Virus record (IMG/VR): IMGVR_UViG_3300037258_000931
Location: 1 to 64,000 of that record
Source of the DNA: a virus
Lineage: Duplodnaviria; Heunggongvirae; Uroviricota; Caudoviricetes
Strand: one strand, 5' to 3'
DNA length: 64,000 nt
The notes under the pieces are model-generated. The model saw nothing but the letters and a program-made list of their open reading frames with translations, had not been told where the DNA came from and made no database searches. The position numbers and the translations under genes are program-made. Each line of letters starts with the position of its first letter. The stretch's first letter is position 1. Shown piece after piece: positions 6,021-50,417 of this stretch.

Positions 6021-6032
6021 TATTATGCGGGC

Positions 6033-6454: not shown

Positions 6455-6530
6455 GGGAGCGTCGCATAGCGGCAACTGCACTCGACTTTTAATCGAAAAG
6501 ACGTGGGTTCAAATCCCACCGCTCCCACCA
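6455..6530 (+). tRNA. tRNA-Lys (anticodon TTT)
   Basis: Acceptor GGGAGCG/CGCTCCC, anticodon loop CTTTTAA between TCGA stems, T-arm GTGGG-TTCAAAT-CCCAC, CCA. Confidence 0.65.
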
Positions 6531-6536
6531 GGAAGG

Positions 6537-6751: not shown

Positions 6752-6755
6752 TTTT

Positions 6756-6832
6756 GGCCCCGTAGCTCAGGCGGATAGAGCAGTCGTTTCCTAAACGATT
6801 TGTCGGGAGTTCGAATCTTCCCGGGGCCACCA
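6756..6832 (+). tRNA. tRNA-Arg (anticodon CCT)
   Basis: Acceptor GGCCCCG/CGGGGCC, TAGCTCAGGCGGATAGAGC, anticodon stem GTCGT/ACGAT loop TTCCTAA, T-loop TTCGAAT, CCA. Confidence 0.65.
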
Positions 6833-6871
6833 GTTCTGTCGCCCGCTCTAAGGGGGCAGGCACCGGTTTCG

Positions 6872-6947
6872 GCGCGCGTAGCTCAAGCGGATAGAGTGCT
6901 GGCCTCCGAAGCCAGGGATTGCAGTTCGAGTCTGCACGCGCGCACCA
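6872..6947 (+). tRNA. tRNA-Arg (anticodon CCG)
   Basis: Acceptor GCGCGCG/CGCGCGC, anticodon stem CTGGC/GCCAG loop CTCCGAA, T-arm TGCAG-TTCGAGT-CTGCA, CCA. Confidence 0.7.
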
Positions 6948-6970
6948 TAAATGCTCTAGGATGGAGAGCT

Positions 6971-7159
6971 ATGATTGAGATTGTGTATTTGCGAAAGAAC
7001 CGGAAGGGTGAGGTTGTCTCCATGCGCCAGGGCCACTGGGAAAGCTGGCAGCAGATGATGGGCGAAGTCCAGAGGGCCGTCGACGGCGAGATAAAAAAGA
7101 CCTCAAGCGCAGTTAGAAAAAGCACAGTTAAAAAGCGAAGCTCAAAAAAGCGGAGTTAA
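6971..7159 (+). CDS. small lysine-rich hypothetical protein
   Basis: 62 aa after tRNA-Arg(CCG); basic C-terminal tail KKRSSKKRS. Confidence 0.3.
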   Translation: MIEIVYLRKNRKGEVVSMRQGHWESWQQMMGEVQRAVDGEIKKTSSAVRKSTVKKRSSKKRS

Positions 7160-7225
7160 TTCAGCGGCTAGAATGCTTGTCCTACACACAAGACGTCGGG
7201 GGTTCGAGTCCCTCACTCCGCACCA
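7150..7225 (+). tRNA. tRNA-Val (anticodon TAC)
   Basis: Acceptor GCGGAGT/ACTCCGC, anticodon stem CTTGT/ACAAG loop CCTACAC (C at position 33), T-loop TTCGAGT, CCA. Confidence 0.6.
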
Positions 7226-7237
7226 ATTCTGTTGTCG

Positions 7238-7290
7238 AGTTTCAGGGGTCAGTTGTCAGGGGTCAGTGGAAGCGAGAGCAAGAGCGCTCA
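7238..7290. repeat. GGGATCAG-family partial (left arm plus core start)
   Basis: gtttcaggggtcagttgtcaggggtcag...agcgagagcaagagc; lies just upstream of the 7300 GTG start. Confidence 0.6.
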
Positions 7291-7299
7291 GAGGGAGAC

Positions 7300-7503
7300 G
7301 TGATCTTGAAAGACGTTTATCTAGGGGACGGCCTGTATGCTCACTTTGACGGCTACCAGATTGAGTTGTATGCGTTCAACGGGGTAGGCAAGACGGCCAG
7401 CGTGTTTCTGGAACCGGCAGTGCTGAAGAGTTTTCTGGCGTACGTCGAAGACTTGAAGCGCCGGATTGCGGCCGACCCGGCGGGAAGTTTTTTGCAGCAG
7501 TGA
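7300..7503 (+). CDS. small hypothetical protein
   Basis: GTG start preceded by GAGGGAG; 67 aa. Confidence 0.35.
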   Translation: MILKDVYLGDGLYAHFDGYQIELYAFNGVGKTASVFLEPAVLKSFLAYVEDLKRRIAADPAGSFLQQ

Positions 7504-7510
7504 TTCACGA

Positions 7511-7585
7511 GCCGGTATAGCTCAAGCGCAGAGCACTCGACCGATAATCGAGAGGTTGCAGCCTCAGAAGCTGCTACCGGCACCA
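7511..7585 (+). tRNA. tRNA-Ile (anticodon GAT)
   Basis: Acceptor GCCGGTA/TACCGGC, anticodon stem CTCGA/TCGAG loop CCGATAA (C33), T-arm GCAGC-CTCAGAA-GCTGC, CCA. Confidence 0.6.
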
Positions 7586-7601
7586 GGTTTATAATGCTTT
7601 C

Positions 7602-7937
7602 ATGCTCTGGGAAGTAAGCGTCGAAGGGTCGCTCGTAAGCTATGGAGAAGATGAGGATGGCCGGGCGATTCCGTGTTTGTCTGAAGACACGATTGCGTTC
7701 ATCGAAGAGGGTCGAGACCTGATCGAGATCATGATGCTGGTGCAGGCGAAACTGGATGTTTTGAACGGAAAGCTCAAGCAAAAATATCCAGACCTGTACA
7801 AGGACGACCTGGACTGGGAGTACAAGATCGTGGGGATCGGGAGAACCGATCTGGTTCGCTTCGATGACCGGTGGATAGAGGAATTTGTGGACAAGGAAGT
7901 GATGACCTGGAACAGCAATGAGGAAGAAAATTCCTAA
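7602..7937 (+). CDS. hypothetical acidic protein (lower-GC segment)
   Basis: 111 aa; region 7.6-8.45 kb is visibly more AT-rich than its surroundings. Confidence 0.4.
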   Translation: MLWEVSVEGSLVSYGEDEDGRAIPCLSEDTIAFIEEGRDLIEIMMLVQAKLDVLNGKLKQKYPDLYKDDLDWEYKIVGIGRTDLVRFDDRWIEEFVDKEVMTWNSNEEENS

Positions 7938-8012
7938 GCGAGCGTGGTATAGCGGCTGGTGCCCTGGGCCTCCAACCCAGAGACGCGGGTTCGACTCCCG
8001 CCGCTCGCTCCA
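7938..8012 (+). tRNA. tRNA-Gly (anticodon TCC)
   Basis: Acceptor GCGAGCG/CGCTCGC, anticodon stem CTGGG/CCCAG loop CCTCCAA (C33), T-arm GCGGG-TTCGACT-CCCGC, CCA. Confidence 0.6.
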
Positions 8013-8027
8013 TCATTCGAGGTAGGG

Positions 8028-8405
8028 ATGACAAACAAACGCGCTCCTTCTGTATCGAGTTGGCATGATATCCCGGACTCGGTTGTAGATGAGTTTAGTA
8101 AAAAGGTTCGGCAGCTTCAGCGAGAGATGATTCCGCTCGATGGCGATGGAGATATAGCTGTCGAGATAATCATTGTCGACCGGAGGAAGTTTGAGCCACT
8201 TCACTTCCAACCTATACCCTATAACCACCCGCCTTACGGAACGAAATGGACGCCAGAAGAAGAGGCTGCTGTCCATGAGGAGCGATTGCGCTGGCTATCC
8301 TGCAACGCGGATATGGCAAATCGTTCGCTTGAGACTTTTCTGTCTCTGGAACTATATCGCCTGGCTTCTGAGCGTGAAAAAGGTGCCAAAAACTTTCAAA
8401 AATAG
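8028..8405 (+). CDS. hypothetical protein (lower-GC segment)
   Basis: ATG right after tRNA-Gly; 125 aa. Confidence 0.4.
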   Translation: MTNKRAPSVSSWHDIPDSVVDEFSKKVRQLQREMIPLDGDGDIAVEIIIVDRRKFEPLHFQPIPYNHPPYGTKWTPEEEAAVHEERLRWLSCNADMANRSLETFLSLELYRLASEREKGAKNFQK

Positions 8406-8645
8406 CGCGCATGATTTTACATAGGACTATGATATAGTCGTTTTCACGTGCCAGTTCTCCGCTTGAAAACCCCGCGTACCATCCCCCGCCTGCAACTCTC
8501 TCCTTCTTTCCCCAATCTGCCTCGCAAGCTGGCCCCCGGGCCGGGAGGAATCCCGGCCGCGTGTTTCCAAAGCAACAATTTGCGCCCGTGGGCCGCAAAG
8601 GGGTAGACTCGGCTTCGATTCCAAGTTCTATTTTGAGGAGCAACG

Positions 8646-9407
8646 ATGACCAAGATGCATGAGCTGCTGGCCGTACAGACGAACCTGAACGGCCAGGCAA
8701 CCAAGACCCGCACCGGCTTGATGGACACCTTCAGAACCAAGCGGCACCTGTTTGAGAAGAAGGTGAAGGCGTTTCAGCCTCTCGGCGAAGGCGCCGACCT
8801 GACCATCGAAGAGCAGTCCGATATCCAGACCACGGTGCCTAAGGAGATCGAGTGGCTGAAGGGCCACCTGGTGAAACAAATCGATGTGGGTTTGCGCGTA
8901 GACGTGGGCAACCGGATCGCCGAGGCTGACGTGGTGGACGAAGAAGACACCAAGATCCTGGCCAAAATGCCGGCCACCACGCTGCTGTGGCTGGAAAAAC
9001 GGGTGCAGGAGGTAAAGGAGCTGATCGAGGCCATTCACACCCTGGACCCGGCCAAGGGATTTACCGAGGACCGGGATGCGGGCGTGGGGTACTGGAAGGC
9101 GCGCGAAGTGAAGAAGGAGCGCACCAAGAAAAAGAAAGTGGTGATCGTGAAGTACGACGCTGTGGATAAGCACCCGGCGCAGACCGAGCTGGTGGACGAG
9201 GACGTGGTGGTAGGCACGATTCGCGAGCAGGAGTGGAGCGCGCTGATCACGCCGGCGATGAAAGCGGAGCTGTTGAACCGGGCGGAGATGCTGATTCGGG
9301 CGGTGGCCAAGGCTCGCTCCAAGGCCAACGAGCAGGAAGTGGACATCAAGGACGCCAAGATCGGAGACGTGCTGCTTGACTACGTCTTCAAGCCTCTGCT
9401 AGGGTAA
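8646..9407 (+). CDS. hypothetical protein
   Basis: 253 aa; upstream promoter-like TTGCGC..17..TAGACT and RBS GGAGGAG; charged, coiled-coil-like composition. Confidence 0.45.
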   Translation: MTKMHELLAVQTNLNGQATKTRTGLMDTFRTKRHLFEKKVKAFQPLGEGADLTIEEQSDIQTTVPKEIEWLKGHLVKQIDVGLRVDVGNRIAEADVVDEEDTKILAKMPATTLLWLEKRVQEVKELIEAIHTLDPAKGFTEDRDAGVGYWKAREVKKERTKKKKVVIVKYDAVDKHPAQTELVDEDVVVGTIREQEWSALITPAMKAELLNRAEMLIRAVAKARSKANEQEVDIKDAKIGDVLLDYVFKPLLG

Positions 9408-9558
9408 TCGCGGGTGGGGTCGGCCTTGACCGGCCGGCCCGATTCCAGGTTAAGGCTGAGGCTGAGATTCAGCGGACGCGCGAGCGCGAGCGTGAGGCTC
9501 AGGTTGACACCCCAGGCTTATCGCGGAGAACGATAGCTCGACAGACGAGACTCTTTTT

Positions 9559-9595
9559 ACGGTGGTCGTCGGTTCGAATCCGGCGGGAGCCCCCA
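9559..9595 (+). tRNA. orphan tRNA 3' half (anticodon-stem 3' strand, variable loop, T-arm, acceptor 3' strand, CCA)
   Basis: ACGGT-GGTC-GTCGG-TTCGAAT-CCGGC-GGGAGCC-C-CCA; no matching 5' half upstream; perfectly complementary to the 5' half found 11 nt downstream. Confidence 0.3.
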
Positions 9596-9605
9596 AAATA
9601 TTCAT

Positions 9606-9642
9606 GGCTCCCTAGCTCAGCGGTAGAGCAGCCGTCTCAGGT
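9606..9642 (+). tRNA. orphan tRNA 5' half (acceptor 5' strand, D-arm, anticodon-stem 5' strand and loop)
   Basis: GGCTCCC-TA-GCTC-AGCGGT-AGAGC-A-GCCGT-CTCAGGT; no T-arm or acceptor 3' strand downstream; GGCTCCC pairs with GGGAGCC of the upstream 3' half; candidate anticodon CAG (Leu) if the loop is CTCAGGT. Confidence 0.3.
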
Positions 9643-9683
9643 TAAAAGTTTCGGGTTGAAGAGCGAGGCGTTGCCGCACCGTA

Positions 9684-9757
9684 CTTGAGATAGCTCAGAT
9701 TGGTAGAGCATTCGACTTGTAATCGAAGGGTCTCTGGTTCAAATCCAGATCTCAAAC
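9684..9757 (+). tRNA. tRNA-Thr-like (anticodon TGT), C1:A72 mismatch, no encoded CCA
   Basis: Acceptor CTTGAGA/TCTCAAA (terminal C-A mismatch), TAGCTCAGATTGGTAGAGC, anticodon stem TTCGA/TCGAA loop CTTGTAA, T-arm TCTGG-TTCAAAT-CCAGA. Confidence 0.45.
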
Positions 9758-13449: not shown

Positions 13450-15687
13450 ATGATTGAGCGGTTGACGGTGGGCAAAGATGGCGCGGTGGAAGTGCATCTG
13501 ACTGGCATCTCTTTGCAGGCGACCAAGGCGTTTACGCATGGCACGCTGGGGTTCGATCTTCAGGCGCGCACCGTGACTTTCGGCAAGCTGGCGCCGGTGG
13601 CGCTCCCCGCAGAACTGCAGCCGTCGGCGGGCGCCGCAGTGCATTTGCGGCTGCTGGGCCCGGATGGAGAGCTGCGCAAGCAGACGCGATCTGGAACGTG
13701 GACGGCGGTGGGCAAGCAGCCGCATCTTTTGCGCATCGGCGGCCACGCGCAGACGGCGCGCAAGTTCCCGGCCGAGGAGGGCTGGAGCAACCGGACGTAC
13801 AAGTATCGCGCGTACTTCAGCCATCCCGGGGCCGAGACCGATGGGGAACTGCCGGAGTGGCTGCGCGGGTCGATCGCGCGGCAGCGGGCGTACTGGAATC
13901 GCCTGGCATGGCTGTGCCGGGATGCGCGCCGCAAGTGCTCGACGGAGTCTCCAGAGCAAGTGGCGGAGTTTGTAGGTCAAGTGATTGTGCCGGCGATCGA
14001 TGCGTTTAACGAGGCGATCGGGCCGGATCGGCGTCGCGCCAAGGAGCGGCTCAAGCATCCGCAGAAGCTGAAGGACCGGCCCGGGATCGACGGGTTGTGG
14101 GCCTTTGCCGGGCTGCTGCGCGCCTGGGAGGGGAAGGGGCATCCGGTTCCCGAGGGGCTGATGGACCGGGTGCTCGCGTTTGCCAAACAGTTCCAGCCCG
14201 ATTACGCTCCGCTGAACGAGTTTATGCGAGATCTGAGCCAGATTGCGGCGGCGGAGGCCGAGCGGCTGGAGCTGAAATGGTTCGAGGTGCGGCCGGAGCT
14301 GAGCAGCTTCAAAGCCACCCTTGACCGTCGCAGGACTGTGCAGGCGTCCTGGTCGGACGGCTGGCCGATGCTACGTTTTGCGCAGCTCGGGAAGGATCTC
14401 GACTGGGGGCTGCATTACTACCTCAGGAAGGCTGGGGTGGGCACGGAGTTACTGGAGACCGGCAAAGGGGTGCCGGGGCTCAGTCTCGGGGCGCCGCTGA
14501 GCCACGCTGAAACCGGCCATCCTCACCTTTGTGGGGCGGCGGCCAAGCGGGCGCTGCGCGAGGCCCGGATTTCGATTCCTGGGGAAGGGAAAGACCGCTG
14601 GATCTTCCGGTTTGCGGTGCTGGAACATCGGCCGCTGCCGGCCCATGCGCATGTGAAGGAGTGGAAGCTGGTGTTCAAGGGAGGCGAGCTGTGGCTGTGC
14701 CTGGTGGTGGAGATGCAGCAGCCGCTGCCGGAGCCCAGCGCCCAGGCCGCGGGGCTGGATATCGGCTGGCGGCGGACGGCGGAGGGCATTCGCTTCGGGA
14801 CTCTCTACGAGCCGTTGGCGGGGACGGTGCGGCTGCTGGAGATGGATTTCGGGCGCTCGCCGCGCGATCCTGCCGACAGGGTACCGTTCCGGATCGATCT
14901 GGGACCGAGCCGGTGGCAGAAGCGCAACCAGAAACGGCTGTTTCCGGAGCCGGTGGCTGAGGGGGAGAGCGCGGCGGCGCGCCCGCATGACGGGGCGGAA
15001 GTGCCAGGGCTTTTAGAGACTGGGATTCAACTGCAGACGCGGCGCGACTACGAGAAGGATACGGTGAAGATTCTGCTGCGGCGGTATCTGGGAGAACGAA
15101 CTCCGCCGTGGCTGGACAGGGCCGGACTCTCGGGATTGCGCAGGCTGCGGGAAGAGTTGAAAGACGATGCCGGCGCGTGGGCTATTTTAGAGGCGTGGCG
15201 GTTGAAGGACGACGAGATTGGGGCATTGACCGCTTTTTATTTTGCGCGCTCGACGCGGCGCATCGAGTACGGGCATCTGCAGGTGGCGCACGATGTCTGC
15301 CGGCACCTGCGCGACCAGGGAGTATCCCGGTTGGCAGTGGAAACCAGTTTTCTAGCCAAGCTGGCGCAGAACCAGAGCAGTGAGGTCCCGGTAGCCCTGA
15401 AGCGTTCGCAGAAATACCGGCAGGTTGCGGCACTGGGAAAGTTTGTGGCCGTGCTCCGGAATACGGCGATCAAGTACGGCGTGGCCGTGGATGAGCATGA
15501 CGCGGCCAATACAACCCGGATCTGCCGGTACTGCAACCATCTGAATGAGGCGACAGAGCGGGAGAAGTACAACTGCGCGGCCTGCGGCCGGGAGCTGAAG
15601 CAGGATGAAAATGCGGCGGTGAACCTGTCGCGGTTCGCGGCCGATCCGGAGCTTGCGGAGATGGCGTTGCAGGCGGGGAGGAAGTGA
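13450..15687 (+). CDS. cas12: Cas12/TnpB-family RuvC nuclease (745 aa), putative type V CRISPR effector
   Basis: The C-terminal third carries RuvC-I (AAGLDIGWRR, about aa 436), RuvC-II (RLAVETSF, about aa 629), a CxxC...CxxC zinc finger (CRYCNH...CAACG) and RuvC-III (DENAAVNL, about aa 718), in the order typical of Cas12/TnpB; a CRISPR array starts 56 nt downstream. Confidence 0.75.
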   Translation: MIERLTVGKDGAVEVHLTGISLQATKAFTHGTLGFDLQARTVTFGKLAPVALPAELQPSAGAAVHLRLLGPDGELRKQTRSGTWTAVGKQPHLLRIGGHAQTARKFPAEEGWSNRTYKYRAYFSHPGAETDGELPEWLRGSIARQRAYWNRLAWLCRDARRKCSTESPEQVAEFVGQVIVPAIDAFNEAIGPDRRRAKERLKHPQKLKDRPGIDGLWAFAGLLRAWEGKGHPVPEGLMDRVLAFAKQFQPDYAPLNEFMRDLSQIAAAEAERLELKWFEVRPELSSFKATLDRRRTVQASWSDGWPMLRFAQLGKDLDWGLHYYLRKAGVGTELLETGKGVPGLSLGAPLSHAETGHPHLCGAAAKRALREARISIPGEGKDRWIFRFAVLEHRPLPAHAHVKEWKLVFKGGELWLCLVVEMQQPLPEPSAQAAGLDIGWRRTAEGIRFGTLYEPLAGTVRLLEMDFGRSPRDPADRVPFRIDLGPSRWQKRNQKRLFPEPVAEGESAAARPHDGAEVPGLLETGIQLQTRRDYEKDTVKILLRRYLGERTPPWLDRAGLSGLRRLREELKDDAGAWAILEAWRLKDDEIGALTAFYFARSTRRIEYGHLQVAHDVCRHLRDQGVSRLAVETSFLAKLAQNQSSEVPVALKRSQKYRQVAALGKFVAVLRNTAIKYGVAVDEHDAANTTRICRYCNHLNEATEREKYNCAACGRELKQDENAAVNLSRFAADPELAEMALQAGRK

Positions 15688-15743
15688 AGCGCATCGGACC
15701 AGTGCAACAGATTTAGTCTCTACCGATTTCGCGGGGCGCAGTC

Positions 15744-16933
15744 GTCGCAACCGAGTTTGAGTGCACTGGGTAAGTGCAACCGGCGCCTTCACTCAGTCTT
15801 GCCTGCGCGGCAGACGTCGCCACGGGGCCAAGTGCACTGGGTAAGTGCAACGTGATGTTGTTCGTCATTTGGGCCTCGCCTCTTCCGTCGCAACGGGGTC
15901 CAAGTGCACTGCGTAAGTGCAACAATTTGGCTCGTACGTTCCACCCGAGGCAATCCGGTCGCAACCAGGACAAAGTGCACTGCGCAAGTGCAACTGCGAT
16001 TGTCTTCGCTAATGACTGTCAACAGCGCGTCACAACGGGAACCAAGTGCACTGAGCAAGTGCAACAGCTATACCTAAACTTTAGTGTCAAGCAAATGGAG
16101 TCGCAACGGGGTCCAAGTGCACTGAGTAAGTGCAACCTTATTGGCTGTCATGGAAGCACGCCGGAGGTTTAAGTCGAAACCGGGACCAAGTGCGCTGCGT
16201 AAGTGCAACGTTCCCCTCCAGCGTGTGAACACAAATTCGTGCGTCGCAACAAGGACGTAGTGCACTGGGCAAGTGCAACCGCAACCCTGGTGTTTATTGA
16301 ACCGCCGTTTGCCGTCGTCGCAACGGGCAAGTAGTGCGCTGAGTAAGTGCAACTCTACAGGACAGACGCGCAAGCTGAAGTCTGGCGGGTCGCAACGGGC
16401 GCCAAGTGCACTGGGCAAGTGCAACCTTGCACCGCCGCGCTATATGCCGCTCCAATACGTCGCAACGGGGTCCATGTGCACTGGATAAGTGCAACTTTTG
16501 CTTGGCACCGCAGAAAGCCCAAATCTCGTCGTCGCAACGGGGACCAAGTGCACTGAGTAAGTGCAACCACCATGTTATCGCAGGTTCTCGCCATACCGAT
16601 CAGTCGCAACGGGCGCCAAGTGCACTGGGCAAGTGCAACTTTGCCCCTTCGACTCGTACACGGTTGAGGTCGTGCCGCAACGGGGTCTAAGTGCACTGGA
16701 TAAGTGCAACGACTCCCCCACTCGCCGCCAGACCAATGTAATCTATCGTCGCAACGGGCGCCAAGTGCACTGGGCAAGTGCAACTCAAGTGAAATGGAAC
16801 AGCGAGCTATATCACTAGGTCGCGACGGCCGCGAAGTGCACTGGGTAAGTGCAACACCTAACCGCTGCGCCTATGCGGAAATTTAGAGTCGTCGCAACCG
16901 GAACGTAGTGTGCCGCGGAGGCGCAACTTTGCG
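15744..16933 (+). CRISPR. CRISPR array, about 17-18 repeats of 36-37 nt (consensus GTCGCAACGGGGTCCAAGTGCACTGGGTAAGTGCAAC) with unique 31-37 nt spacers
   Basis: Repeats share a 5' GTCGCAAC and 3' AGTGCACTGGGTAAGTGCAAC (hairpin TGCAC/GTGCA) but differ in the central about 9 nt; terminal repeats degenerate; an extra truncated repeat fragment (CCAGTGCAAC, 15700-15709) overlaps the cas12 stop region. Confidence 0.8.
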
Positions 16934-17652: not shown

Positions 17653-18864
17653 ATGTCCGACAGCCTGCGCTCACCCGACATTCCCGAAACACTTCCTGAC
17701 CGGCAGCCGAAGTTTCATCACTCGGCGGAGTTCGACCAGATATACGCCGCTTTCATCGACGCCCAGGCTGAATTTACGCCCGTGGCGAAGAACAAGACCG
17801 CTACCGTCTACAGCGCCAAAACCGGCAAGAGCTACACCTACAAGTTTGCCGACCTGGCCGACGTGCTCGGCATGGCGCTGCCGGTGCTGACCCGGCACAA
17901 GATCGGTCTGATGCAGCCGCACCTGATGGTGAGTGGCCGGCTGCGAGTGGTGACTCGGCTGATCCACGCCTCAGGCCAATGGATGATGAACGACGGTTTG
18001 GATATGGTGGAAGCTCAGGCGCGGCAGGATTTCGGCGGCGACTCCAGTTACAACCGGCGCTACGACGTGTGCAGTTTTCTGGGCATCGTGGCCGACGAGG
18101 ATACCGACGTTCAGCATCAGGGGATGGATTCCGACAAAGCTTCGGTACGGCAGCCAAAGCCGGTAACGCCGGCCCAGGCTCTGGCGCAGACCTCCGCGCA
18201 GACCTCCGCGCAGAATGGATCGGACAGCGCGGCCGGGAATTCGCGGGGCAATGCCTCTGCGAGCGATCGGAAGGGTTCGCCGGCAGCAGAGGAGCTGCTG
18301 GGGGCGCGCGCGGCGCTGGTGAACAAGCTGAAAGAGCTGGCGCCGGGGCCCGAACTTGGCAAGCGGGCCGGCGCCATGTTTCCGCAGCATAAGAGTACCC
18401 GGACGCTGACCGTGGCAGATCTGGAACAACTGCATGCGGTGCTGCTGCGCGAAAAACTGGACAACCAGAAACGGGAGCAGGAAAAGCTGGATCGGGAGAA
18501 GCGAGATCAGGAGAAGCTGGAAAGCGCGAAGCCGGAGCCGGCGGCTGCGAAGCCTGAGCAGCCAAAGCCGGGGCAAGCCGACGTGGTGCGCGATGCCGGC
18601 GACGAGGTGGCAGAGATGTTTGACGACGCAATGAAGAAACCGCAGACGCCGACCGCCGGAGAGACCATCGGCAAGGGTCTGGGACATCGGCTGCATAAGC
18701 TGATCGGGATTCACAAGATCCACACCGAGCAGGAACTCAAGGACGACTATCTGACGCCGTACGGTGTGGAACACGTATCGGATTTGCCGCGCGATCTCTA
18801 CGAGCGGTTATGCGCGTGGGCAGAGGGAACGCTGGAAGAAGGGAAGTCGATTGGCGATGCGTAG
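17653..18864 (+). CDS. erf: ERF-family single-strand annealing protein (recombinase)
   Basis: N-terminal AAFIDAQAEF..V.KNKTA...YKFADLADVL....PVLTRHKIGL matches the ERF signature; acidic and Lys/Glu-rich C-terminal extension. Confidence 0.7.
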   Translation: MSDSLRSPDIPETLPDRQPKFHHSAEFDQIYAAFIDAQAEFTPVAKNKTATVYSAKTGKSYTYKFADLADVLGMALPVLTRHKIGLMQPHLMVSGRLRVVTRLIHASGQWMMNDGLDMVEAQARQDFGGDSSYNRRYDVCSFLGIVADEDTDVQHQGMDSDKASVRQPKPVTPAQALAQTSAQTSAQNGSDSAAGNSRGNASASDRKGSPAAEELLGARAALVNKLKELAPGPELGKRAGAMFPQHKSTRTLTVADLEQLHAVLLREKLDNQKREQEKLDREKRDQEKLESAKPEPAAAKPEQPKPGQADVVRDAGDEVAEMFDDAMKKPQTPTAGETIGKGLGHRLHKLIGIHKIHTEQELKDDYLTPYGVEHVSDLPRDLYERLCAWAEGTLEEGKSIGDA

Positions 18865-19155: not shown

Positions 19156-19530
19156 ATGAAGATGATGGACTGGTCCGAAGCGTTCCCGCGCAAGGTAAAC
19201 ATGGACCAATATCTGCCGCTGATCGAGAGCGCGCTGAAGGCGGCCACCGGCAAGGACAGTCGGCCTCGCGTGGTGTTTGAGGACTATCCCGATAAGAAGT
19301 CCGCGACCCGGGCCGCCAACGCGATGCGTAATCACGTCCGGCATAAGAAGCTGGAGCTGGTAGTAGCGCAACCCAACGAATCGACCCGGGTGTTTGTGTA
19401 CAAGGGCACGCCGGACGTACGGCCACGGAAGAAGAATGCACAGCAGCCTCTCAGCTCCGAAGCTCCTGAAGCCTCAGCCGGAGATGGCGCGGCCGGGGGA
19501 GACAGCGGAGAAACTGAGCCCACGGCTTGA
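19156..19530 (+). CDS. hypothetical protein
   Basis: 124 aa; SD GAGGAGATGATGT then ATG. Confidence 0.4.
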   Translation: MKMMDWSEAFPRKVNMDQYLPLIESALKAATGKDSRPRVVFEDYPDKKSATRAANAMRNHVRHKKLELVVAQPNESTRVFVYKGTPDVRPRKKNAQQPLSSEAPEASAGDGAAGGDSGETEPTA

Positions 19531-20167
19531 GATAGCCGGCGGATGGTTTGAGCCGGACGGCCATATTTATCGTGACGCTCTGGGCAATCGGGTCCTGAGC
19601 GTCACGCAGGTCTTGCAATCGATGGGGCTGGTGGATTATCGCGGCGTCCGCCCGGACGTGCTGCAGCATAAATCCGAGATCGGCATCGCAGTCCACAGGT
19701 CTGTGGAACTGCTTCTTCAAAAAAATCTGGACTGGGATACGGTGGACGAAGCCGCCATGAACTATGTGGTGGGCACCGAGCTATGGTTGCGCGATATGCG
19801 CTTTGAGTTGGAAAGCTGCGAGCAGCAGGGTGTTCTGGACGTGTATGGGATGAAGATCGGCTACCAATACGACCTGCTGGGCCGGATCTGGTATCAGGGA
19901 AATCTGCGACCGGTGATTGTGGACCTGAAGACGGCTGTGCAGACCAGCGTGTCCTGGGCGTTGCAGACCGCGGCCTATGCGCTGGCGGCGAGGCGCCGGG
20001 GTAGGATAAAGACCGGCGAAGCTTGTCTGCGGGTGGTGCTGCATCTGCAGAAAGACGGCCGTGTCAAGCCGCTTTACTACGACGACCCAGACGATGAACG
20101 GACATTTTTATATATGGCATATTGTGCGACCTGGAAGCAGAATCACGGGTATGAGGCGGCGGCATGA
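19484..20167 (+). CDS. RecB-family PD-(D/E)xK nuclease, likely recombination exonuclease partner of ERF
   Basis: Motifs EIGIAVHRSVE, GYQYDLLGRI, VIVDLKT ((D/E)xK) and QTAAYALA (QxxxY); no C-terminal 4-Cys cluster, so not Cas4-like. Confidence 0.55.
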   Translation: MARPGETAEKLSPRLEIAGGWFEPDGHIYRDALGNRVLSVTQVLQSMGLVDYRGVRPDVLQHKSEIGIAVHRSVELLLQKNLDWDTVDEAAMNYVVGTELWLRDMRFELESCEQQGVLDVYGMKIGYQYDLLGRIWYQGNLRPVIVDLKTAVQTSVSWALQTAAYALAARRRGRIKTGEACLRVVLHLQKDGRVKPLYYDDPDDERTFLYMAYCATWKQNHGYEAAA

Positions 20168-22022: not shown

Positions 22023-22075
22023 CCCTAGAGTTAGATTATGGCGCATTGCGCCAATTTAACTGTGAGGGGGAGTCC

Positions 22076-23263
22076 GTGAAGAGACCGAGGAAGCGGGTAG
22101 AGCAGTTTGGGTACGTGGAAGGACCTAAAAACGGGTCGTATTTTCTGCGTTATTGGGGCTCGCCGGATGGTGAGGGAAAGAGAAGCCGGTGCGCGATTGA
22201 AATTGGCTTGAAGGGGCAGTTCAACAGCAAAGAGGAAGCTTCTTATTCGATCGAAGCAGCGAAACTGCGGCGTCGCATCAACGCCGGAGCGATTGGCCGC
22301 ACCGTGGGCCAGATTGCGGCGGAGTTTGAGCGCGACGCGATGCCAAAACGGGCTAATACTCGCGCTACCGATCTGACCTGCCTGCGGCATATCGTGAAGA
22401 AGTGGGATACAGAGCCCATTGCCGGGCTGACCGAGACCACGGAATCGAAGCGGCTGGAGGGCTGGCTGGACCGCATGCGCAGGTTCGATGGCTCGCAGGA
22501 GCTGAGCTATTCGGCCAAGAAGAATGTGCGCCAGCAGATGGCGACTCTGTTTGATTTTGCGATGAAGCAGGGTTACATTCCTACCAACGTAAACCCCATG
22601 GAACGGGTTCACCTGGTGCAGCGGGAAGAGCCCCGGCGCCGGCAAAAGTTATCGCCTAAGCTGCTGGATCTGTTTTTTGCCAGCCCGGATATCCCGGAGT
22701 ACGTAAAGGTCATCGCGCACGTCGCCAAACGCACCGGGTTCCGCATCAGCGAAATTCTAGGACTGAAAAAAGAGGATTTTGATCTGGACAGCAATTTGGT
22801 AACGGTGCGGCGTCGGATCTATCGGGAGGAGATCGCGGGACCTAAAAGCAAGAAGTCCGGAGACCCGGTGCCCTTCGACGAGGAGCTGTTTCGGATTCTA
22901 AGCGCGTGGCTGAAGTCGCCGGGCAACTACCCCAACTTCGAAGGCTGGCTGTTTTGTTCACCCATGACGCGCCGCCCCTACTCCGCCGATGGGATGCAGT
23001 TGAGCCACCTCCGCCCCTTCGGGCTACGGCACGGGATCGAGAAGTTCGGCTGGCACAGTTTCCGGCACGGCTTTAAGGACTACCTGAAAGAAGCGGAGAC
23101 GCCGCTCGATGAGATCAAGCGCCTGATGCGGCACTCCAAGATCCAGACCACTGACGGGTATGGCTCTGAAAGCAGTATGGAGACGTTGCGCCGGCGCCAG
23201 GCCGCTGCGATTGCGCTGATGGAACGGCCAGCGGTTGAACCGAAGAAGCGGAAGTGGGCGTGA
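22076..23263 (+). CDS. int: tyrosine integrase (site-specific recombinase)
   Basis: GTG start after GAGGGGGAG; C-terminal catalytic region with RISEILGL, HSFRHGF, RLMRHS...TDGYG (R..H..R..Y). Confidence 0.8.
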   Translation: MKRPRKRVEQFGYVEGPKNGSYFLRYWGSPDGEGKRSRCAIEIGLKGQFNSKEEASYSIEAAKLRRRINAGAIGRTVGQIAAEFERDAMPKRANTRATDLTCLRHIVKKWDTEPIAGLTETTESKRLEGWLDRMRRFDGSQELSYSAKKNVRQQMATLFDFAMKQGYIPTNVNPMERVHLVQREEPRRRQKLSPKLLDLFFASPDIPEYVKVIAHVAKRTGFRISEILGLKKEDFDLDSNLVTVRRRIYREEIAGPKSKKSGDPVPFDEELFRILSAWLKSPGNYPNFEGWLFCSPMTRRPYSADGMQLSHLRPFGLRHGIEKFGWHSFRHGFKDYLKEAETPLDEIKRLMRHSKIQTTDGYGSESSMETLRRRQAAAIALMERPAVEPKKRKWA

Positions 23264-25243: not shown

Positions 25244-25539
25244 GCCTGCCCGCCACCCTCTTCGGGTACGTGCATCGGAGGCCGTCAGGGGCGATGGACC
25301 CCGGCACGGAGCTGGCGGCCGTGCAGCCCGATCCGCGGCTGACGTTTCGCCTGGAGCGGCGCACGGTGGTGGGCTACATCTGCATGGACTGCCTGATGCG
25401 GGGGGCACACAAGGACGACTGCCGCAGTCCGGAGTGGGAATACGACGGCGGCGTGGAATACCGCCAGAGCGTGCCGGACGAAGTGATGGACTGGGTGAAC
25501 CGGCATGGGCGGCAGCATGCATTTTGGGGGGGGCGATGA
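25240..25539 (+). CDS. small hypothetical protein
   Basis: 99 aa; ATGA-type overlap with the upstream ORF. Confidence 0.35.
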   Translation: MSLPATLFGYVHRRPSGAMDPGTELAAVQPDPRLTFRLERRTVVGYICMDCLMRGAHKDDCRSPEWEYDGGVEYRQSVPDEVMDWVNRHGRQHAFWGGR

Positions 25540-25542
25540 AGG

Positions 25543-25738
25543 ACAGAGATCAGGGATCAGTTGTCAGGGGTCAGTTAAGGGCAAGGGCAAAAGCAAGAGC
25601 AACCGCTGGTTCTTTGGCTTCGGTCGCTCTGCTCCCTTCGCTCAGGATGACAACCGATTCAGACGCTCAGGATGACGGGTTTTTGCTGCTGCGCTCAAGG
25701 CTGGTTTTTTCTGACCCCTGTTCTCTGACCCCTGACCG
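25543..25738. repeat. GGGATCAG-family element, full
   Basis: Canonical arms; core with two gctcaggatgac boxes and a T-run. Confidence 0.85.
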
Positions 25739-25758
25739 CTGCGGCCGGAGGGAGCGTC

Positions 25759-36059: not shown

Positions 36060-36063
36060 AGGC

Positions 36064-36285
36064 AGGGAACAGGGATCAGTTGTCAGGGGTCAGGGATCAG
36101 TTAAGGGCAAAAGCAAAAGCAAGTGCAACCGCGGGTTCTTCGACTTCGGTCGCTTTGCTCCCTTCGCTCAGAATGACAACCGATTTAGGTGCTCAGGATG
36201 ACAGGGGTTTTGTTTTTTCTGATCCCTGATCTCTGAAACCTGACCCCTGACCCCTGATCCCTGTTGCCCTGATCTCTGAAACGAA
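36064..36285. repeat. GGGATCAG-family element, full
   Basis: Core with duplicated gctcag(g/a)atgaca boxes; upstream of the AAA ATPase gene. Confidence 0.85.
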
Positions 36286-44813: not shown

Positions 44814-44895
44814 TCCCTCAGGGGCTAATGCCCAACTTGTTTCCGGCTCTTTACGGCACGGCTGAAGCCGTGCCCTTTCAAAGCACGGGCAAATT
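44814..44895. repeat. CCTCAGGGGCTAA-type hairpin-cluster element, copy 2
   Basis: CCCTCAGGGGCTAATGCCC...CACGGCTGAAGCCGTGCCCTTTCAAAGCACGGGC. Confidence 0.5.
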
Positions 44896-45006
44896 AGGAC
44901 ACTGCTGACGCGCGCAATTTTTGACTTGGAGGCACCCGCAGCCTGTATGCTGCTGGTGACGTCTCGAAGCCGGATAGAAAGGCGCGGGCGCGGAGGAGAA
45001 AGCACG

Positions 45007-45498
45007 ATGCCAAGAAAAGCGACGACTAAAGGGAATCCGAAGACTGAGGGGAAATCAAAGAAAACTGCGAACGTTACCGAAGCGGAGAAAAAACTGATTT
45101 GTCCGGAGTGCGGCGCCGGGCCGTATCAAGACAAGCGTGGCTGGGCTACGCATCGCTTCAACGTGCATAAGATCCACGGAACATCGGCCTCGACAATCGC
45201 TTACCACAGAAAGCAGGACCGGGCCCGGCTGGCGGGGCTGGCAGGGAAGGATGTTGCGCCTGCGGCGCCTGAGCGTAAACCGCGAGCATCCGCTCCGGCC
45301 CGTGCCGCGGCTTCAGACGGGACGGCGGCCTACGATGTTCCAGCGAGCCTGGTGGGGTACACCGCGGCCAAGTTCGAGCTGGCCCTGCATGCAATAGCGA
45401 TCGAGCACTCGCTGCCGAAGCAGCAGTTTGTCCAGGCGGTGGCGTTCTACCTCTCCGCGATATCAAGGGAACAGAAGAGCTCTGAAGAGCAGAACTAG
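45007..45498 (+). CDS. hypothetical zinc-ribbon protein
   Basis: ATG at 45007; 163 aa; CPECG...HRFNVH. Confidence 0.4.
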   Translation: MPRKATTKGNPKTEGKSKKTANVTEAEKKLICPECGAGPYQDKRGWATHRFNVHKIHGTSASTIAYHRKQDRARLAGLAGKDVAPAAPERKPRASAPARAAASDGTAAYDVPASLVGYTAAKFELALHAIAIEHSLPKQQFVQAVAFYLSAISREQKSSEEQN

Positions 45499-45507
45499 GG
45501 CGTTGCG

Positions 45508-45753
45508 ATGGTTGATTCTTTTCATCCTCCTTCTGAGGTGCTCTCATTGTGGGTGGTCTACGCGCATCCGCTGGACTACCCACAGAACTTTGTGCTGCGG
45601 CGCTGGGAGTTGCGCGATAGGGTGTTACTGCCCACCAACGAGGTGTCGCTGGGAATGACTTTCGAAGAGATTCGCGCCGCGCTGCCGCCGGGGCTGTATT
45701 GGCTGCCCCGTTTCGCAGGCGACGATCCGTGTATTGTGGAGGTGTGGCTGTGA
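45508..45753 (+). CDS. small hypothetical protein
   Basis: 81 aa. Confidence 0.3.
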   Translation: MVDSFHPPSEVLSLWVVYAHPLDYPQNFVLRRWELRDRVLLPTNEVSLGMTFEEIRAALPPGLYWLPRFAGDDPCIVEVWL

Positions 45754-46001
45754 GCGACGATCGGCTGCAGGACCTTGAACTCTACGCCTGGGTGGGCGAA
45801 GATGAGTTCGGCAGCGGCGCGGTTGGGTTGAAGCAAGGCGTGGTGCCCGCTGGGACCATTCCCATGGTGGCCATCGAGCGGGAGAAGCTGGACCGGTACT
45901 GGGCAAACGCGGAGCGGCAAGCCGCGGCCTTTGGCAAGCGAATCTCGCTGGTGCGATTCAGGGCGGTAGAAGTGGTGAGGCGGACGGCTGCGGGGGACTA
46001 A
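45750..46001 (+). CDS. small hypothetical protein whose stop codon abuts the mini CRISPR array
   Basis: GTG overlapping the upstream stop (GTGA); 83 aa; TAA at 45999-46001. Confidence 0.3.
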   Translation: MSDDRLQDLELYAWVGEDEFGSGAVGLKQGVVPAGTIPMVAIEREKLDRYWANAERQAAAFGKRISLVRFRAVEVVRRTAAGD

Positions 46002-46163
46002 GTGCACTGGGCAAGTGCAACTCAACGGAGGCAGGTTTGCCCTCTTCGGCAAGCGTTGCAACGAAGACAAAGTGCGCTGGAGAAGTGCAACAGTTCATGG
46101 TGATATGAATTGCGGGCGAAGGCGGGGTTGCAACCAGCTCCGAGCGCACTACGCGCGTGCAAT
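46000..46163 (+). CRISPR. mini CRISPR array (3 repeats / 2 spacers) of the same repeat family, first and last repeats degenerate
   Basis: AAGTGCACTGGGCAAGTGCAAC (46000-46021), GTTGCAACGAAGACAAAGTGCGCTGGAGAAGTGCAAC (46055-46091), GTTGCAACCAGCTCCGAGCGCACTACGCGCGTGCAAT (46127-46163); spacers 31 and 34 nt. Confidence 0.55.
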
Positions 46164-46188
46164 GCAATTGATTGGAGAGCGGGGCGAT

Positions 46189-46665
46189 ATGCCGAACCGA
46201 TGGACCAAAACCGCTTCGAGGCTGATGACCGGCCGGGTAGCGCTGAGCCATGAAATTATGATTACGGTGTGGCCGTTTTTTCTGGGCGCGCTGTGCGCCT
46301 GGGACGTGGAGAGACATCTCTGGGTGATGGTGGCACTGAATGGCGCGCTGAGCGTGGTGCTGGCGGCGGCGGCGGTTTATTTGCACCGCGCGCGCCGGCT
46401 GGCGCTGGAGGTTGTGATGCACGTGCGGGAGGCGACGGAACAGCGGGCGCTGGCCGCGGAGGCGGAGCGGGGAAGATTGCGCCAGGTGGCGCTCTCGGCC
46501 CTGGCTTTGAAGCTGACGATCGAGCACGGATTTCCCCCCAATCTCGATGCGCTGACCCGGGACCTGGCCGCAGTGGTTGAAGTGCAGAGCGTGACAGTGA
46601 CTCGGGCCCCTGCCGGGCAGCCTGAAACCGGCTGGACCAAAACGGACCGGTCCAAAATAAACTAG
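46189..46665 (+). CDS. hypothetical membrane protein
   Basis: 158 aa from ATG 46189 (the ORF track N-terminal extension runs through the mini-array); two hydrophobic helices. Confidence 0.4.
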   Translation: MPNRWTKTASRLMTGRVALSHEIMITVWPFFLGALCAWDVERHLWVMVALNGALSVVLAAAAVYLHRARRLALEVVMHVREATEQRALAAEAERGRLRQVALSALALKLTIEHGFPPNLDALTRDLAAVVEVQSVTVTRAPAGQPETGWTKTDRSKIN

Positions 46666-46677
46666 AATGGCTGGACG

Positions 46678-46870
46678 GAGAACAGGGATCAGAGGTCAGA
46701 GATCAGGGGTCAGGGGTCAGTTAAGAGCAAAAGCAAAAGCAAAGGCAACCGCAGGTCCTTCGACTTCGGTCGCTTTGCTCCCTGCGCTCAGGATGACAGT
46801 CGAGGTAAAGGTGACAGGTTTTTTCTGACCCCTGATCTCTGATCCCTGAAAACTGACCCCTGACCCCTGT
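46678..46870. repeat. GGGATCAG-family element, full
   Basis: Canonical; immediately upstream of ssb. Confidence 0.85.
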
Positions 46871-46886
46871 TGTCTGAAGGAGAACC

Positions 46887-47390
46887 ATGGCCAAGAGCAT
46901 GAACAAAGCGATTCTGCTGGGCAACGTGGGCAAGGACCCCGAGATCCGCACCCTGAGCAACGGTACCAAGATAGCCACCCTGGCGCTGGCCACCAGCGAG
47001 CGCATCAAGGACAAGCAGGGCAACTGGGAGGACCGGACCGAATGGCACACGTTGGTGGCTTTTGCGCGGCTGGCCGAGGTGATCGAACAGTACGTGCGCA
47101 AGGGCAGCAAGCTGTGTATCGAGGGCCGGATCGCGACCCGGAGCTGGGACGACAAACAGTCGGGCGAGAAAAAATATGCGACCGAGATCAAGATCGACGA
47201 TCTGGTGCTTTGCGATGCCAGGGGTCAGAGATCAGAGGTCAGGGTTCAGGGATCAGGGATCAGAGATCAGGGATCAGTTGTCGGGGATCAGGGCCGCTCG
47301 GGTCAGCCCGCAGGTCAACTCGCGGGGGGGCGCGGGGGCAGCGTGGTGGATGAGCGCGACCCGACCGACGACTGGGCCGATTTCCGGTAA
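46887..47390 (+). CDS. ssb: single-stranded DNA-binding protein
   Basis: N-terminal OB fold MNKAILLGNVGKDPEIRTLSNG...WHTLVAFARLAE...ATRSW...KYATEIKIDD; linker contains an in-frame GGGATCAG tract; acidic tip DDWADF. Confidence 0.8.
   Translation: MAKSMNKAILLGNVGKDPEIRTLSNGTKIATLALATSERIKDKQGNWEDRTEWHTLVAFARLAEVIEQYVRKGSKLCIEGRIATRSWDDKQSGEKKYATEIKIDDLVLCDARGQRSEVRVQGSGIRDQGSVVGDQGRSGQPAGQLAGGRGGSVVDERDPTDDWADFR
47220..47292. repeat. GGGATCAG tract translated in frame inside ssb (linker region)
   Basis: About nine tandem units encoding RGQRSEVRVQGSGIRDQGSVVGDQG. Confidence 0.8.
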
Positions 47391-47737: not shown

Positions 47738-48436
47738 ATGACTGACCGGATGGTGGCGGGACGTATTTCGAAGCGGGCTGAGGCGAAAGACATCCGCCCC
47801 TTTTTGGACAGGATCGCGCTGTACCGGCGGGAGCTGGCCGGCAAGCCCTGCCGGCGGGTGGCGCGGGGCGAGGATCTGAGCGGGCTGCTGGCGGAGCTGG
47901 AGCGGGTGGGCCGGGGGCTCGACGGAGTGGGCATTGCCGCGCCGCAGATCGGGGTGTTTCTGCAGGTGGCGCTGCTGTTTCCAGAGATCAGGGACCAGTT
48001 GTCAGGGATCAGGGGTCAGCGATCAGGGGTCAGGAAGGGCAGGAAGGGAGCGGTCCAGCCGTCATCCGTGGTGCTGGTGAATCCGGAGATTGAGAACCTG
48101 CGCGGGAAAGACATTCTGGAGTACGAGGGATGCTTGAGCCTGCCGCCTTTCCCGGGATGCGAGTCGCACCTGCAAGCATCCAGGCGCATGGCGGAGGCGC
48201 GGGTGTGGCGCAGCGAGGTGATCGAGATCCGCAGCGGCACGGTGGACGATCCCGCGGCCGGACTGAAGCACACCTTCCGCGGCTACCTGGCGCGGATTGT
48301 GCAGCACGAGATGGATCACCTCAAGGGAGTGTTCTTTATCGACCACTGCGGGCCGATCGGCCGGGAGCAGGTGTTAAAGCGGTTTGGGGAGTATTTGAAA
48401 GCCAGGGATCAGTTGTCAGGGGTCAGGGGTCAGTGA
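47738..48436 (+). CDS. def: peptide deformylase with an in-frame repeat insertion
   Basis: Motifs GIAAPQIGV (GxGxAAxQ), EGCLSLP, HEMDHL in order; about 16 aa translated from a GGGATCAG tract between motif 1 and the beta region; C-terminus also runs into a repeat arm. Confidence 0.65.
   Translation: MTDRMVAGRISKRAEAKDIRPFLDRIALYRRELAGKPCRRVARGEDLSGLLAELERVGRGLDGVGIAAPQIGVFLQVALLFPEIRDQLSGIRGQRSGVRKGRKGAVQPSSVVLVNPEIENLRGKDILEYEGCLSLPPFPGCESHLQASRRMAEARVWRSEVIEIRSGTVDDPAAGLKHTFRGYLARIVQHEMDHLKGVFFIDHCGPIGREQVLKRFGEYLKARDQLSGVRGQ
47983..48035. repeat. GGGATCAG tract translated in frame inside def
   Basis: gagatcagggaccagttgtcagggatcaggggtcagcgatcaggggtcagg encodes EIRDQLSGIRGQRSGVR. Confidence 0.8.
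48403..48434. repeat. GGGATCAG tract forming the C-terminal codons of def
   Basis: cagggatcagttgtcaggggtcaggggtcagtga. Confidence 0.75.
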
Positions 48437-49838: not shown

Positions 49839-50207
49839 ATGGCGATGGCATGCAAAACCGGAAGTCCGTACAAGCTGTTTGTGTGGCGTTGCCAGCCGCT
49901 CTACGTGGTGATGGCTCACGCCCGGACGGTGGCCGAGGCTCGCAAGCTGGCGCTGGAAGAGTGTCGCGGAACCGGAGACGAAAGCACCCCGGTGCGCCGG
50001 CGGGCGTATATCGCTGTCGAGACTACCACCCCGGAGATTCACTACCGGGAGAATGCCGAGTTTGTGCTGACCGACTCGGCGGAGCTGGAAGAGATGGAAG
50101 CCTATGCCCGGGTGCTGGCGGAGCGAATTAGAGAACTGACCGGGATAGCCGGCATCTCGATGGAGCAGTACCGGGAAACCGCTAAGGCAGTTTTCAGGGA
50201 ACGGTAG
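49839..50207 (+). CDS. hypothetical protein
   Basis: 122 aa; ends at a full repeat element. Confidence 0.4.
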   Translation: MAMACKTGSPYKLFVWRCQPLYVVMAHARTVAEARKLALEECRGTGDESTPVRRRAYIAVETTTPEIHYRENAEFVLTDSAELEEMEAYARVLAERIRELTGIAGISMEQYRETAKAVFRER

Positions 50208-50209
50208 CC

Positions 50210-50417
50210 AGAGATCAGGGGTCAGTTATCAGGGGTCAGGGATCAGTTAGAAGCAAGAGCAAAAGCAACGGCAACCGCGGGTCCTTCGACTTCGGTCGCT
50301 CTGCTCCCTGCGCTCAGGATGACAGCCGATTTAGGTGCTCAGGATGACAGGTTTTTACTGATCCCTGATCTCTGACCCCTGATCTCTGAAACCTGATCTC
50401 TGAAATCTGATCCCTGG
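50210..50417. repeat. GGGATCAG-family element, full
   Basis: Core with gctcaggatgacagccgatttaggtgctcaggatgacagg; long right arm. Confidence 0.85.

Follow-up and report, generated by a model that had tools for sequence, protein, structure and literature searches.

A second, two-spacer CRISPR array at a gene end in a phage with a predicted Cas12m-like effector

Type V-M CRISPR systems, whose effector is Cas12m and which were formerly named V-U1, and mini-arrays borne by viruses are among the described systems closest to the locus examined here: a small CRISPR array (the mini-array) at positions 46000-46163 of a 64,000-nucleotide stretch (the window) of a Caudoviricetes phage genome, IMG/VR record IMGVR_UViG_3300037258_000931. 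In Cas12m2 the CRISPR RNA (crRNA) carries a 36-nt repeat-derived scaffold, the first seven nucleotides of which are disordered and whose terminal AC is followed by the guide. G(-23) is paired with A(-2), and a 6-bp helix joins -22 to -17 with -8 to -3, so that the sequence reads ...AG[CUUGGC]GGGCGAAG[GCCAAG]AC followed by the guide. Cas12m members with a D-E-D catalytic triad that have been tested still did not cut DNA. Virus-borne mini-arrays, found in archaeal and bacterial viruses, by comparison usually borrow the Cas proteins of the host, have repeats copied from it and hold spacers with matches in related viruses, and are presumed to be used in conflicts between elements (treated by game theory in PMC7099407 and reviewed in PMC11656645).

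The mini-array consists of three in-register copies of the repeat of the phage's main array, which lies 30 kb away beside cas12. The first copy is a 3' fragment of 22 nt, the second a full 37-mer and the third a 37-mer that is degenerate, and two spacers stand between them. The features on which the argument rests are as follows.

46000-46021, + strand: repeat 1, the 3'-only fragment AAGTGCACTGGGCAAGTGCAAC; an exact match to the repeat core that folds into a 6-bp hairpin
46022-46054, + strand: spacer m1, 33 nt, TCAACGGAGGCAGGTTTGCCCTCTTCGGCAAGC; unique in the window
46055-46091, + strand: repeat 2, the full 37-mer GTTGCAACGAAGACAAAGTGCGCTGGAGAAGTGCAAC; belongs to repeat family D11 and agrees with the consensus at 29/37 positions
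46092-46126, + strand: spacer m2, 35 nt, AGTTCATGGTGATATGAATTGCGGGCGAAGGCGGG; unique in the window
46127-46163, + strand: repeat 3, terminal and degenerate, GTTGCAACCAGCTCCGAGCGCACTACGCGCGTGCAAT; 25/37 identical to the consensus, in register at 72 nt
45750-46001, + strand: upstream gene, 83 aa, no assigned function, identified by translation and a codon-position GC of 0.71/0.45/0.79
15689-16927, + strand: main CRISPR array; a 3'-only degenerate core, then 17 repeats (the last diverged) with 17 spacers
13450-15687, + strand: cas12, 745 aa, predicted Cas12m-like effector; Pfam TNB domain, RuvC triad D437/E631/D719

When the repeat core AGTGCRC-N5-RAGTGCAAC was sought with up to two mismatches, 18 sites were found in the 64-kb window against 0.10 expected from shuffles; 16 of these lie in the main array and two in the mini-array (46001-46021 and 46071-46091), whose core is identical to that of the repeats beside cas12. 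A scan for 37-mers with at least 23 of 37 positions identical to the repeat consensus returned only four sites outside the main array, at 45985 (26/37), 46055 (29/37), 46127 (25/37) and a hairpin at 5711, and shuffled windows gave none or one. The copies are spaced 70 and 72 nt apart, compared with a main-array period of 70-74 nt, and the spacers of 33 and 35 nt compare with 33-37 nt in the main array. The locus has what generally defines a CRISPR array, namely repeats of similar length, unique spacers and a constant period; it is a genuine two-spacer array, the second in this phage. An earlier, sequence-only reading of the window had proposed as much, describing a 3' fragment, a full 37-mer and a degenerate copy around two unique spacers, and the searches bear it out; only the spacer lengths, given there as 31 and 34 nt, are corrected to 33 and 35 nt once 37-nt repeat boundaries are applied. 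A structure-aware scan detected no third array in the window, nor in the 8.6 kb beyond its right end. An Rfam scan of the window returned tRNAs only, and a literature search for the repeat sequence gave nothing relevant.

The stop codon of the upstream gene (TAA, 45999-46001) overlaps the array, as had been noticed from the sequence, the last two A's of the codon being the first two bases of AAGTGCACTGGGCAAGTGCAAC. Homologues of the upstream gene, at 53-62% identity, occur in three IMG/VR phages (L013, L014 and L015); their C-terminus (...GD* or ...GEP*) is kept, and the next gene follows at once, no repeat standing between. From these array-less homologues it follows that the mini-array was inserted, starting from the stop codon of gene 45750-46001. 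The possibility that repeat 1 is a full repeat hidden in coding sequence was rejected, since 45985-45999 resembles the 5' half of the repeat at only ~8 of 15 positions and the C-terminus of the upstream gene (...AGD*) is conserved in the array-less homologues. As those bases are native coding sequence, the 5' half of repeat 1 was never there. The upstream gene itself begins at a GTG that overlaps the stop codon of the preceding gene (GTGA), and an identical copy of 44857-46793 is present in a Logan assembly of SRR11832711.

The same arrangement is found at the main array, a parallel that the sequence-only reading had also drawn. There, a degenerate 21-nt core, AGCGCATCGGACCAGTGCAAC (15689-15709), starts one base past the cas12 stop codon (TGA, 15685-15687); it stops 71 nt short of where the first full repeat ends, and is thus in register with the array. 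At the other end, the last main-array repeat (16891-16927) is the most diverged, as in the mini-array. Separately, the hairpin at 5711-5747 stands between tRNA-Met and tRNA-Lys; it agrees with the CRISPR repeat at 24/37 positions and has 13 nt (TGCGCTGCGTAAG, stem and loop) in common with the main-array repeat at 16173-16209. In this hairpin the family-invariant G18 and A36 are altered, and it is either a chance resemblance or a decayed solitary repeat.

To see which parts of the repeat are held constant, 38 distinct repeats from this and related phages were compared. Positions G18, G20, G33, C34, A35 and A36 are invariant, whereas the 5' half and the loop vary freely. The two arms of a 6-bp stem, 19-24 and 30-35 (-19 to -14 and -8 to -3), pair in 99% of cells, and three of the pairs covary on both sides (UGCACU/AGUGCA, UGCAUC/GAUGCA, UGUGCC/GGCGCA). 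The phage repeat, ...AG[UGCACU]GGGUA[AGUGCA]AC before the spacer, shows the layout of the Cas12m scaffold, with G18 and A36 enclosing a 6-bp helix, the 3' arm of which occupies -8 to -3, and with AC, namely A(-2) C(-1), as its end before the guide. A pseudoknot like that of Cas12m might form between positions 12-15 and the loop: the candidate pairing of 12-15 with 25-28 occurs in 72% of cases, by one-sided changes only.

Because the family repeat has this Cas12m layout, the 22-nt fragment at 46000-46021 would hold the entire conserved scaffold, to the extent that rules carry over from a remote homologue. It contains the conserved A and G, the 6-bp stem TGCACT/AGTGCA, the 5-nt loop and AC; over its whole 22 nt it does not differ from the 3' part of four repeats of the main array, and 13 of 13 family-conserved positions within 17-37 are kept. 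Repeat 2 keeps 17 of 17 conserved positions; its hairpin is retained with one G-U pair, which is also present in two main-array repeats, and its changes are confined to the loop or to that pair. Repeat 3 keeps 13 of 17. Its 5' motif GTTGCAAC is intact, the scaffold half retains four of six stem pairs and has its final C replaced by T, and no spacer follows it. The label 'degenerate' that had been attached to the mini-array therefore holds in part, for the missing 5' half of repeat 1 and the decayed scaffold half of repeat 3, but not for the two scaffolds that precede guides, both of which are intact. Such a restriction of decay to dispensable repeat halves argues for maintained function over a relic.

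The effector that would use these scaffolds bears a remote similarity to Cas12m. On cas12, Pfam recognizes only a Cas12f1-like TNB domain. PADLOC assigns the Cas12u1 model (V-U1, the earlier name of V-M) at 1.5e-29 over residues 364-730, and a family profile searched against the PDB matches Cas12m at 1.7e-19, covering only the C-terminal WED, RuvC and TNB region. With an AlphaFold model (pLDDT 83.5), the first Foldseek match is Cas12m2 (8hhl; E 5e-21, TM 0.48/0.59, 16% identity), and Cas-lambda and Cas-phi appear at ranks 26-49, far under Cas12m; sequence searches with the protein did not find either of the latter. By its modelled fold, then, the effector is Cas12m-like rather than Cas-lambda or Cas-phi. 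A Cas-lambda identity had been considered in view of protein size, the 36-37-nt repeat and a possible end-to-end stem (GTYGC/GCAAC). It was rejected because PDB sequence and fold searches rank Cas12m first, and because the Cas-lambda scaffold pairs the two repeat ends, a stem that would destroy the covarying hairpin and in which position 3 is usually mismatched. The family comprises 92 protein clusters at 40-62% identity, with full-length members of ~730-770 aa, and one homologue is annotated in a Terracidiphilus metagenome-assembled genome (MAG). No Cas1, Cas2 or Cas4 was found among the eight open reading frames (ORFs) flanking cas12.

The RuvC triad (D437/E631/D719) is canonical, unlike the non-canonical triad of the characterized Cas12m clades, although a D-E-D triad also occurs in some clades of Cas12m (3 and 4). 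Across 27 homologues of the phage protein, D437 is replaced by Glu in six and by Arg in one, E631 is invariant and D719 nearly so; catalytic status may thus differ among members of the family.

Taken feature by feature, the mini-array seems to come closest in its working to the arrays of type V-M. Both by fold and by sequence, the models nearest to the effector are those of this type, and the repeat has a similar length (~36-37 nt) and a dispensable 5' end in addition to the scaffold layout given above. On the other side, the likeness of the effector is remote and extends over half of the protein, with a canonical triad: the phage protein is ~150 aa longer, its N-terminal half is unmatched by any Cas12m model, and it is phage-borne. 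The loop is 5 nt here and 8 nt in Cas12m, the repeats within an array are heterogeneous, and several arrays are dispersed over each genome. With virus-borne mini-arrays the locus shares its one or two spacers in a viral genome, away from an adaptation module. By contrast, this phage supplies its own effector and main array, and m1 and m2 match no related virus (71 loci, INPHARED, and IMG/VR by exact 21-22-mers). Compact phage type V systems (Cas-phi, or Cas12j, and Cas-lambda) are alike in having a single phage effector of 700-800 aa, an adjacent array, no expected trans-activating crRNA and no Cas1 or Cas2 seen nearby. Finally, crRNA-like regulatory mini-arrays and RNA anti-CRISPRs are likewise small repeat-derived loci outside a main array; the former differ in standing beside cas genes and in self-matching, the latter in being solitary repeats, whereas the mini-array has full-length spacers and repeats equal to those of the phage's own array.

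Related phages were collected from IMG/VR with the two commonest core variants, which gave 12 and 63 loci. Clade contigs, in the parts fetched, carry two to seven dispersed arrays of 1-24 repeats each. In a 26.9-kb contig (L002), homologues of the genes at 42132, 43231, 43640, 45007, 45547 and 47738 occur in the same order as in the window, and a 6-repeat array separates the 45007-like gene from the 45547-like one, some one or two genes away from where the mini-array lies in the window. Two further contigs (L007 and L012; 3300022849_000036 and 3300050034_000403) have a 17-20-repeat array beside a homologue of the deformylase gene 47738-48436, ~27 kb from their cas12-adjacent array, compared with 30 kb in the window. 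Of 32 non-redundant arrays, 20 have a 5'-truncated first repeat, defined as one whose 5' 15 nt match the consensus of the same array at no more than eight positions, and the large array next to cas12 in L006 is one of them; the mean 5' match is 8.2 for first repeats and 12.0 for internal ones. Some small arrays start 8-12 nt past an upstream stop codon (L050, L045), and a TATAAT-type leader precedes others (L007, L046, L042). A last repeat reduced to its 5' part was rejected as a general rule, being clear in only six of 51 arrays compared with one in the control.

Several further observations concern these relatives. Multi-array members among L001-L071 include contigs 3300050034_000403, 3300035696_000038 and 3300017941_000010. 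Repeats within one array differ from one another, with compensatory stems TGCACT/AGTGCA, TGCATC/GATGCA, TGCGCC/GGCGCA and TGCACC/GGTGCA. Heterogeneity of this kind is unusual for CRISPR arrays, and suggests that the units persist and mutate individually and are not turned over by acquisition. Periods shortened from the normal 70-74 nt to 45-66 nt, with spacers of ~8-29 nt, occur in L002 (10913-10963), L006 (836-881, 347-407) and L007 (2497-2552); these units look like deletion products.

Neither m1 nor m2 has a self-match in the 64-kb window or the 8.6 kb beyond it, in full or at seed level (12 nt with one mismatch, or 16 nt with three), a search that covered ~72 kb of the 132,674-bp JGI contig on which the window's cas12 sits. 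No match was found in the 71 related loci, in INPHARED phages or in PLSDB plasmids (best E 0.8), and neither half of either spacer gave an exact 21-22-mer in IMG/VR, GTDB species genomes or JGI metagenome contigs, scans for exact 21-22-mers only that diverged targets would escape. The comparison of both spacers with host and phage sequences, which had been put forward as a check, thus yielded no match in the phage itself, reference genomes, other phages or metagenomes. As the 17 main-array spacers also lack matches in INPHARED, this silence is uninformative on function and not a negative result, and reflects poor sampling of the environment together with the exact-match limit. A 17-nt perfect match between a second-array spacer of L012 (1953-1986) and L013 (1047-1063), the latter a carrier of a homologue of gene 45750-46001, has unrelated flanks and was judged to be chance.

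Transcription of the mini-array would depend on its neighbours. Between about 41300 and 46665 the genes of the + strand follow one another closely in a single direction, with no terminator between the upstream genes and the array, and a strongly folding element follows the downstream gene:

46680-46890, + strand: composite inverted repeat built of heptamers, with a T-run inside it; forms one long hairpin, folding energy -104.5 kcal/mol (z = -6.1)

This element is the probable 3' end of the transcription unit that includes the mini-array. As the array has no promoter of its own that could be recognized, the genes around it are packed in one direction and the unit ends in a hairpin, the likeliest source of precursor crRNA is inferred to be read-through with the upstream operon.

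The composite element is found in most intergenic regions, at >40 sites between window positions 413 and 59200 (for example 3547-3755, 25534-25742, 36060-36268, 46680-46890 and 50206-50414). Its parts come in the order heptamers (CAGGGAT, CAGGGGT, CAGAGAT), CAGTTAGAAGCAAGAGCAAGAGCAAC-type hexamers, a GC-rich core, AGGATGACAGGTTTTTT and reverse-complement heptamers, and it is probably a terminator or an RNA-stability element. How many copies there are, and how regular they are, is striking.

Taken together, these data lead us to consider it rather likely that the mini-array is a functional satellite of the phage's own type V, Cas12m-like system, to which it supplies two guides. The array would be transcribed by read-through within the mRNA of the upstream operon; Cas12, encoded 30 kb away, would bind the 3' scaffold of each repeat (G, 6-bp stem-loop, AC) and, if the layout of the Cas12m crRNA is a guide, mature two crRNAs, scaffold-m1 and scaffold-m2, with the 5' part of the next repeat (GTTGCAAC...) as the downstream boundary of each guide. 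These crRNAs would direct the effector to matching protospacer DNA in competing mobile elements or host genes, where the outcome would be cleavage or Cas12m-style binding and silencing. Because a guide needs the scaffold that precedes it and at most the 5' part of the repeat that follows, repeat 1 would need no 5' half and repeat 3 no intact scaffold, and three repeats would be the minimum for two guides. Among the observations behind the proposal of a working array are that the guide-bearing repeats are conserved (13/13 and 17/17), that the terminal one has decayed (13/17) and that satellite arrays recur.

Several points weigh against it. No sigma-70-like promoter was found upstream of the mini-array, so that transcription rests on read-through, and expression of a working array is a prediction. 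Exactly this site holds no array in relatives at 53-62% identity, and there is no close strain to show whether the array is stable. Neither spacer matches any collection searched. Lastly, the similarity to Cas12m is remote (16% identity, TM 0.48-0.59), which makes the transfer of crRNA rules an inference.

Of the other explanations, the one that fares best is an inert relic, a piece of array moved here by recombination or illegitimate insertion and now decaying, from which no useful guide would arise even if it were transcribed. It would account for there being only two spacers, for a last repeat at 25/37 identity and a first one without its 5' half, for spacers without known targets, and for the empty homologous site in L013-L015; moreover, with no adaptation genes among the eight ORFs flanking cas12, the arrays therefore cannot be refreshed in the usual way. 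Decay is, however, uneven: conserved positions are intact (13/13 and 17/17) in the scaffolds that stand before spacers, and losses are found only where a Cas12m-type guide needs nothing. A 5'-truncated first repeat is shared with 20 of 32 arrays of the clade, and satellite arrays recur in the same gene module of relatives. An acquisition relic, which the sequence-only reading had offered as one explanation, is disfavoured by this pattern of loss and by those recurring arrays, and we regard an inert fragment as unlikely.

A regulatory, crRNA-like RNA, in which one or both spacers would tune cas12 or another phage or host promoter by partial complementarity, is quite improbable for the window array. 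Cas12m-type effectors do silence by binding, even with a D-E-D triad, and the dose of an array embedded in an operon would track the timing of that operon; mini-arrays with regulatory spacers are also documented (10.1101/2023.03.03.530964, 10.1101/2024.10.29.618823). Yet the mini-array lies 30 kb from cas12 and does not adjoin it, its spacers (33 and 35 nt) are full-length, as in the main array, and no partial seed match was found in the 64-kb window or the 8.6 kb beyond, ~72 kb of the 132.7-kb contig. The broader suggestion that the array serves regulation, host targeting or anti-defence retains its mechanistic plausibility, given that the nearest relatives of the effector bind DNA and silence, but has gained no target.

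Very improbable is an RNA anti-CRISPR decoy, whose repeat units would soak up a host Cas12 of the same family. Solitary phage repeat units that mimic host repeats are known (PMC10651486), and a homologue of the phage's Cas12 is annotated in the Terracidiphilus MAG. The phage itself, however, encodes the matching effector and a 17-spacer array, the units have normal-length spacers and are not solitary, and the repeats match the phage's own main-array variants exactly.

What remains is the coding status of the array, which involves the gene that follows it:

46189-46665, + strand: downstream gene, 158 aa, hydrophobic ORFan; likely start ATG 46189, after GGAGAG

The public gene call for this gene starts at ATG 46162, past the array. 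The only match of the protein among 5.8 billion proteins is itself, and it has no relatives in IMG/VR. An open frame of 216 codons, from GTG 46015 to 46665, spans the array, and the sequence-only reading had raised the question of whether it is translated throughout. Codon-position GC is 0.61/0.53/0.59 over 46015-46161 and 0.67/0.48/0.77 from 46189 on, and seven other genes resemble the latter; at third codon positions, the flanking genes reach 0.77-0.79 and 46015-46161, in the frame of the downstream gene, 0.59. Translation through the array is not required, as the coding signature is absent there, and the mini-array stretch is non-coding; nor, as had been raised as a ground for refutation, do the repeats lie inside a conserved coding gene in homologues. 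That the repeat-like segments code for the N-terminus of ORF 46015-46665 has a negligible probability: the open frame favours it, but the codon signature is missing before 46189, no part of the ORF has a homologue, the public call starts at 46162, the GGAGAG ribosome-binding motif precedes ATG 46189, and long chance ORFs run through the main array as well.

The wider setting is that of a phage with a cluster of 17-18 tRNA genes, an ERF recombinase, an integrase, SSB and PHROG matches. The tRNA cluster (196-9757) serves 12 amino acids and includes three tRNA-Thr isoacceptors and a duplicate; such clusters are typical of large phages. Directly 3' of the main array lie an ERF-family recombinase (17653-18864), a PD-(D/E)XK nuclease (19394-20167) and a tyrosine integrase (22046-23263). 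Downstream of the mini-array's transcription unit lies SSB (46887-47390), followed closely by peptide deformylase (47738-48436; Pfam 4.8e-22).

The mini-array is real but not exceptional, for related phages have similar scattered arrays and its biology is of a known kind. Within the widespread Cas12m-like phage lineage (92 clusters), it presents the anatomy of what would be the smallest working guide unit: a 22-nt handle and then a spacer appear to be enough, and a unit this small is directly useful for testing the effector. The wider pattern is of more interest, in that the arrays are scattered, some have no more than one to three repeats, fusion with a gene end is frequent, and the repeats drift around one hairpin that is kept. 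Since repeats are heterogeneous with compensatory changes and no Cas1 or Cas2 was found among the ORFs flanking cas12, the dispersed arrays of the clade might even be hard-wired guide-RNA genes and not records of adaptive immunity, a tentative idea that we think rather unlikely. Units in different operons would then give the Cas12m-like effector different guides at each stage of infection, and the array in the window would belong to the operon that lies immediately upstream of the genes for SSB and deformylase; if true, the phage would in effect encode an RNA-programmed timetable by which genes of the host or of rivals are silenced. More generally, if the effector silences as its nearest relatives do, operon-embedded guides would be a plausible means of timed repression of genes of the host or of competitors.

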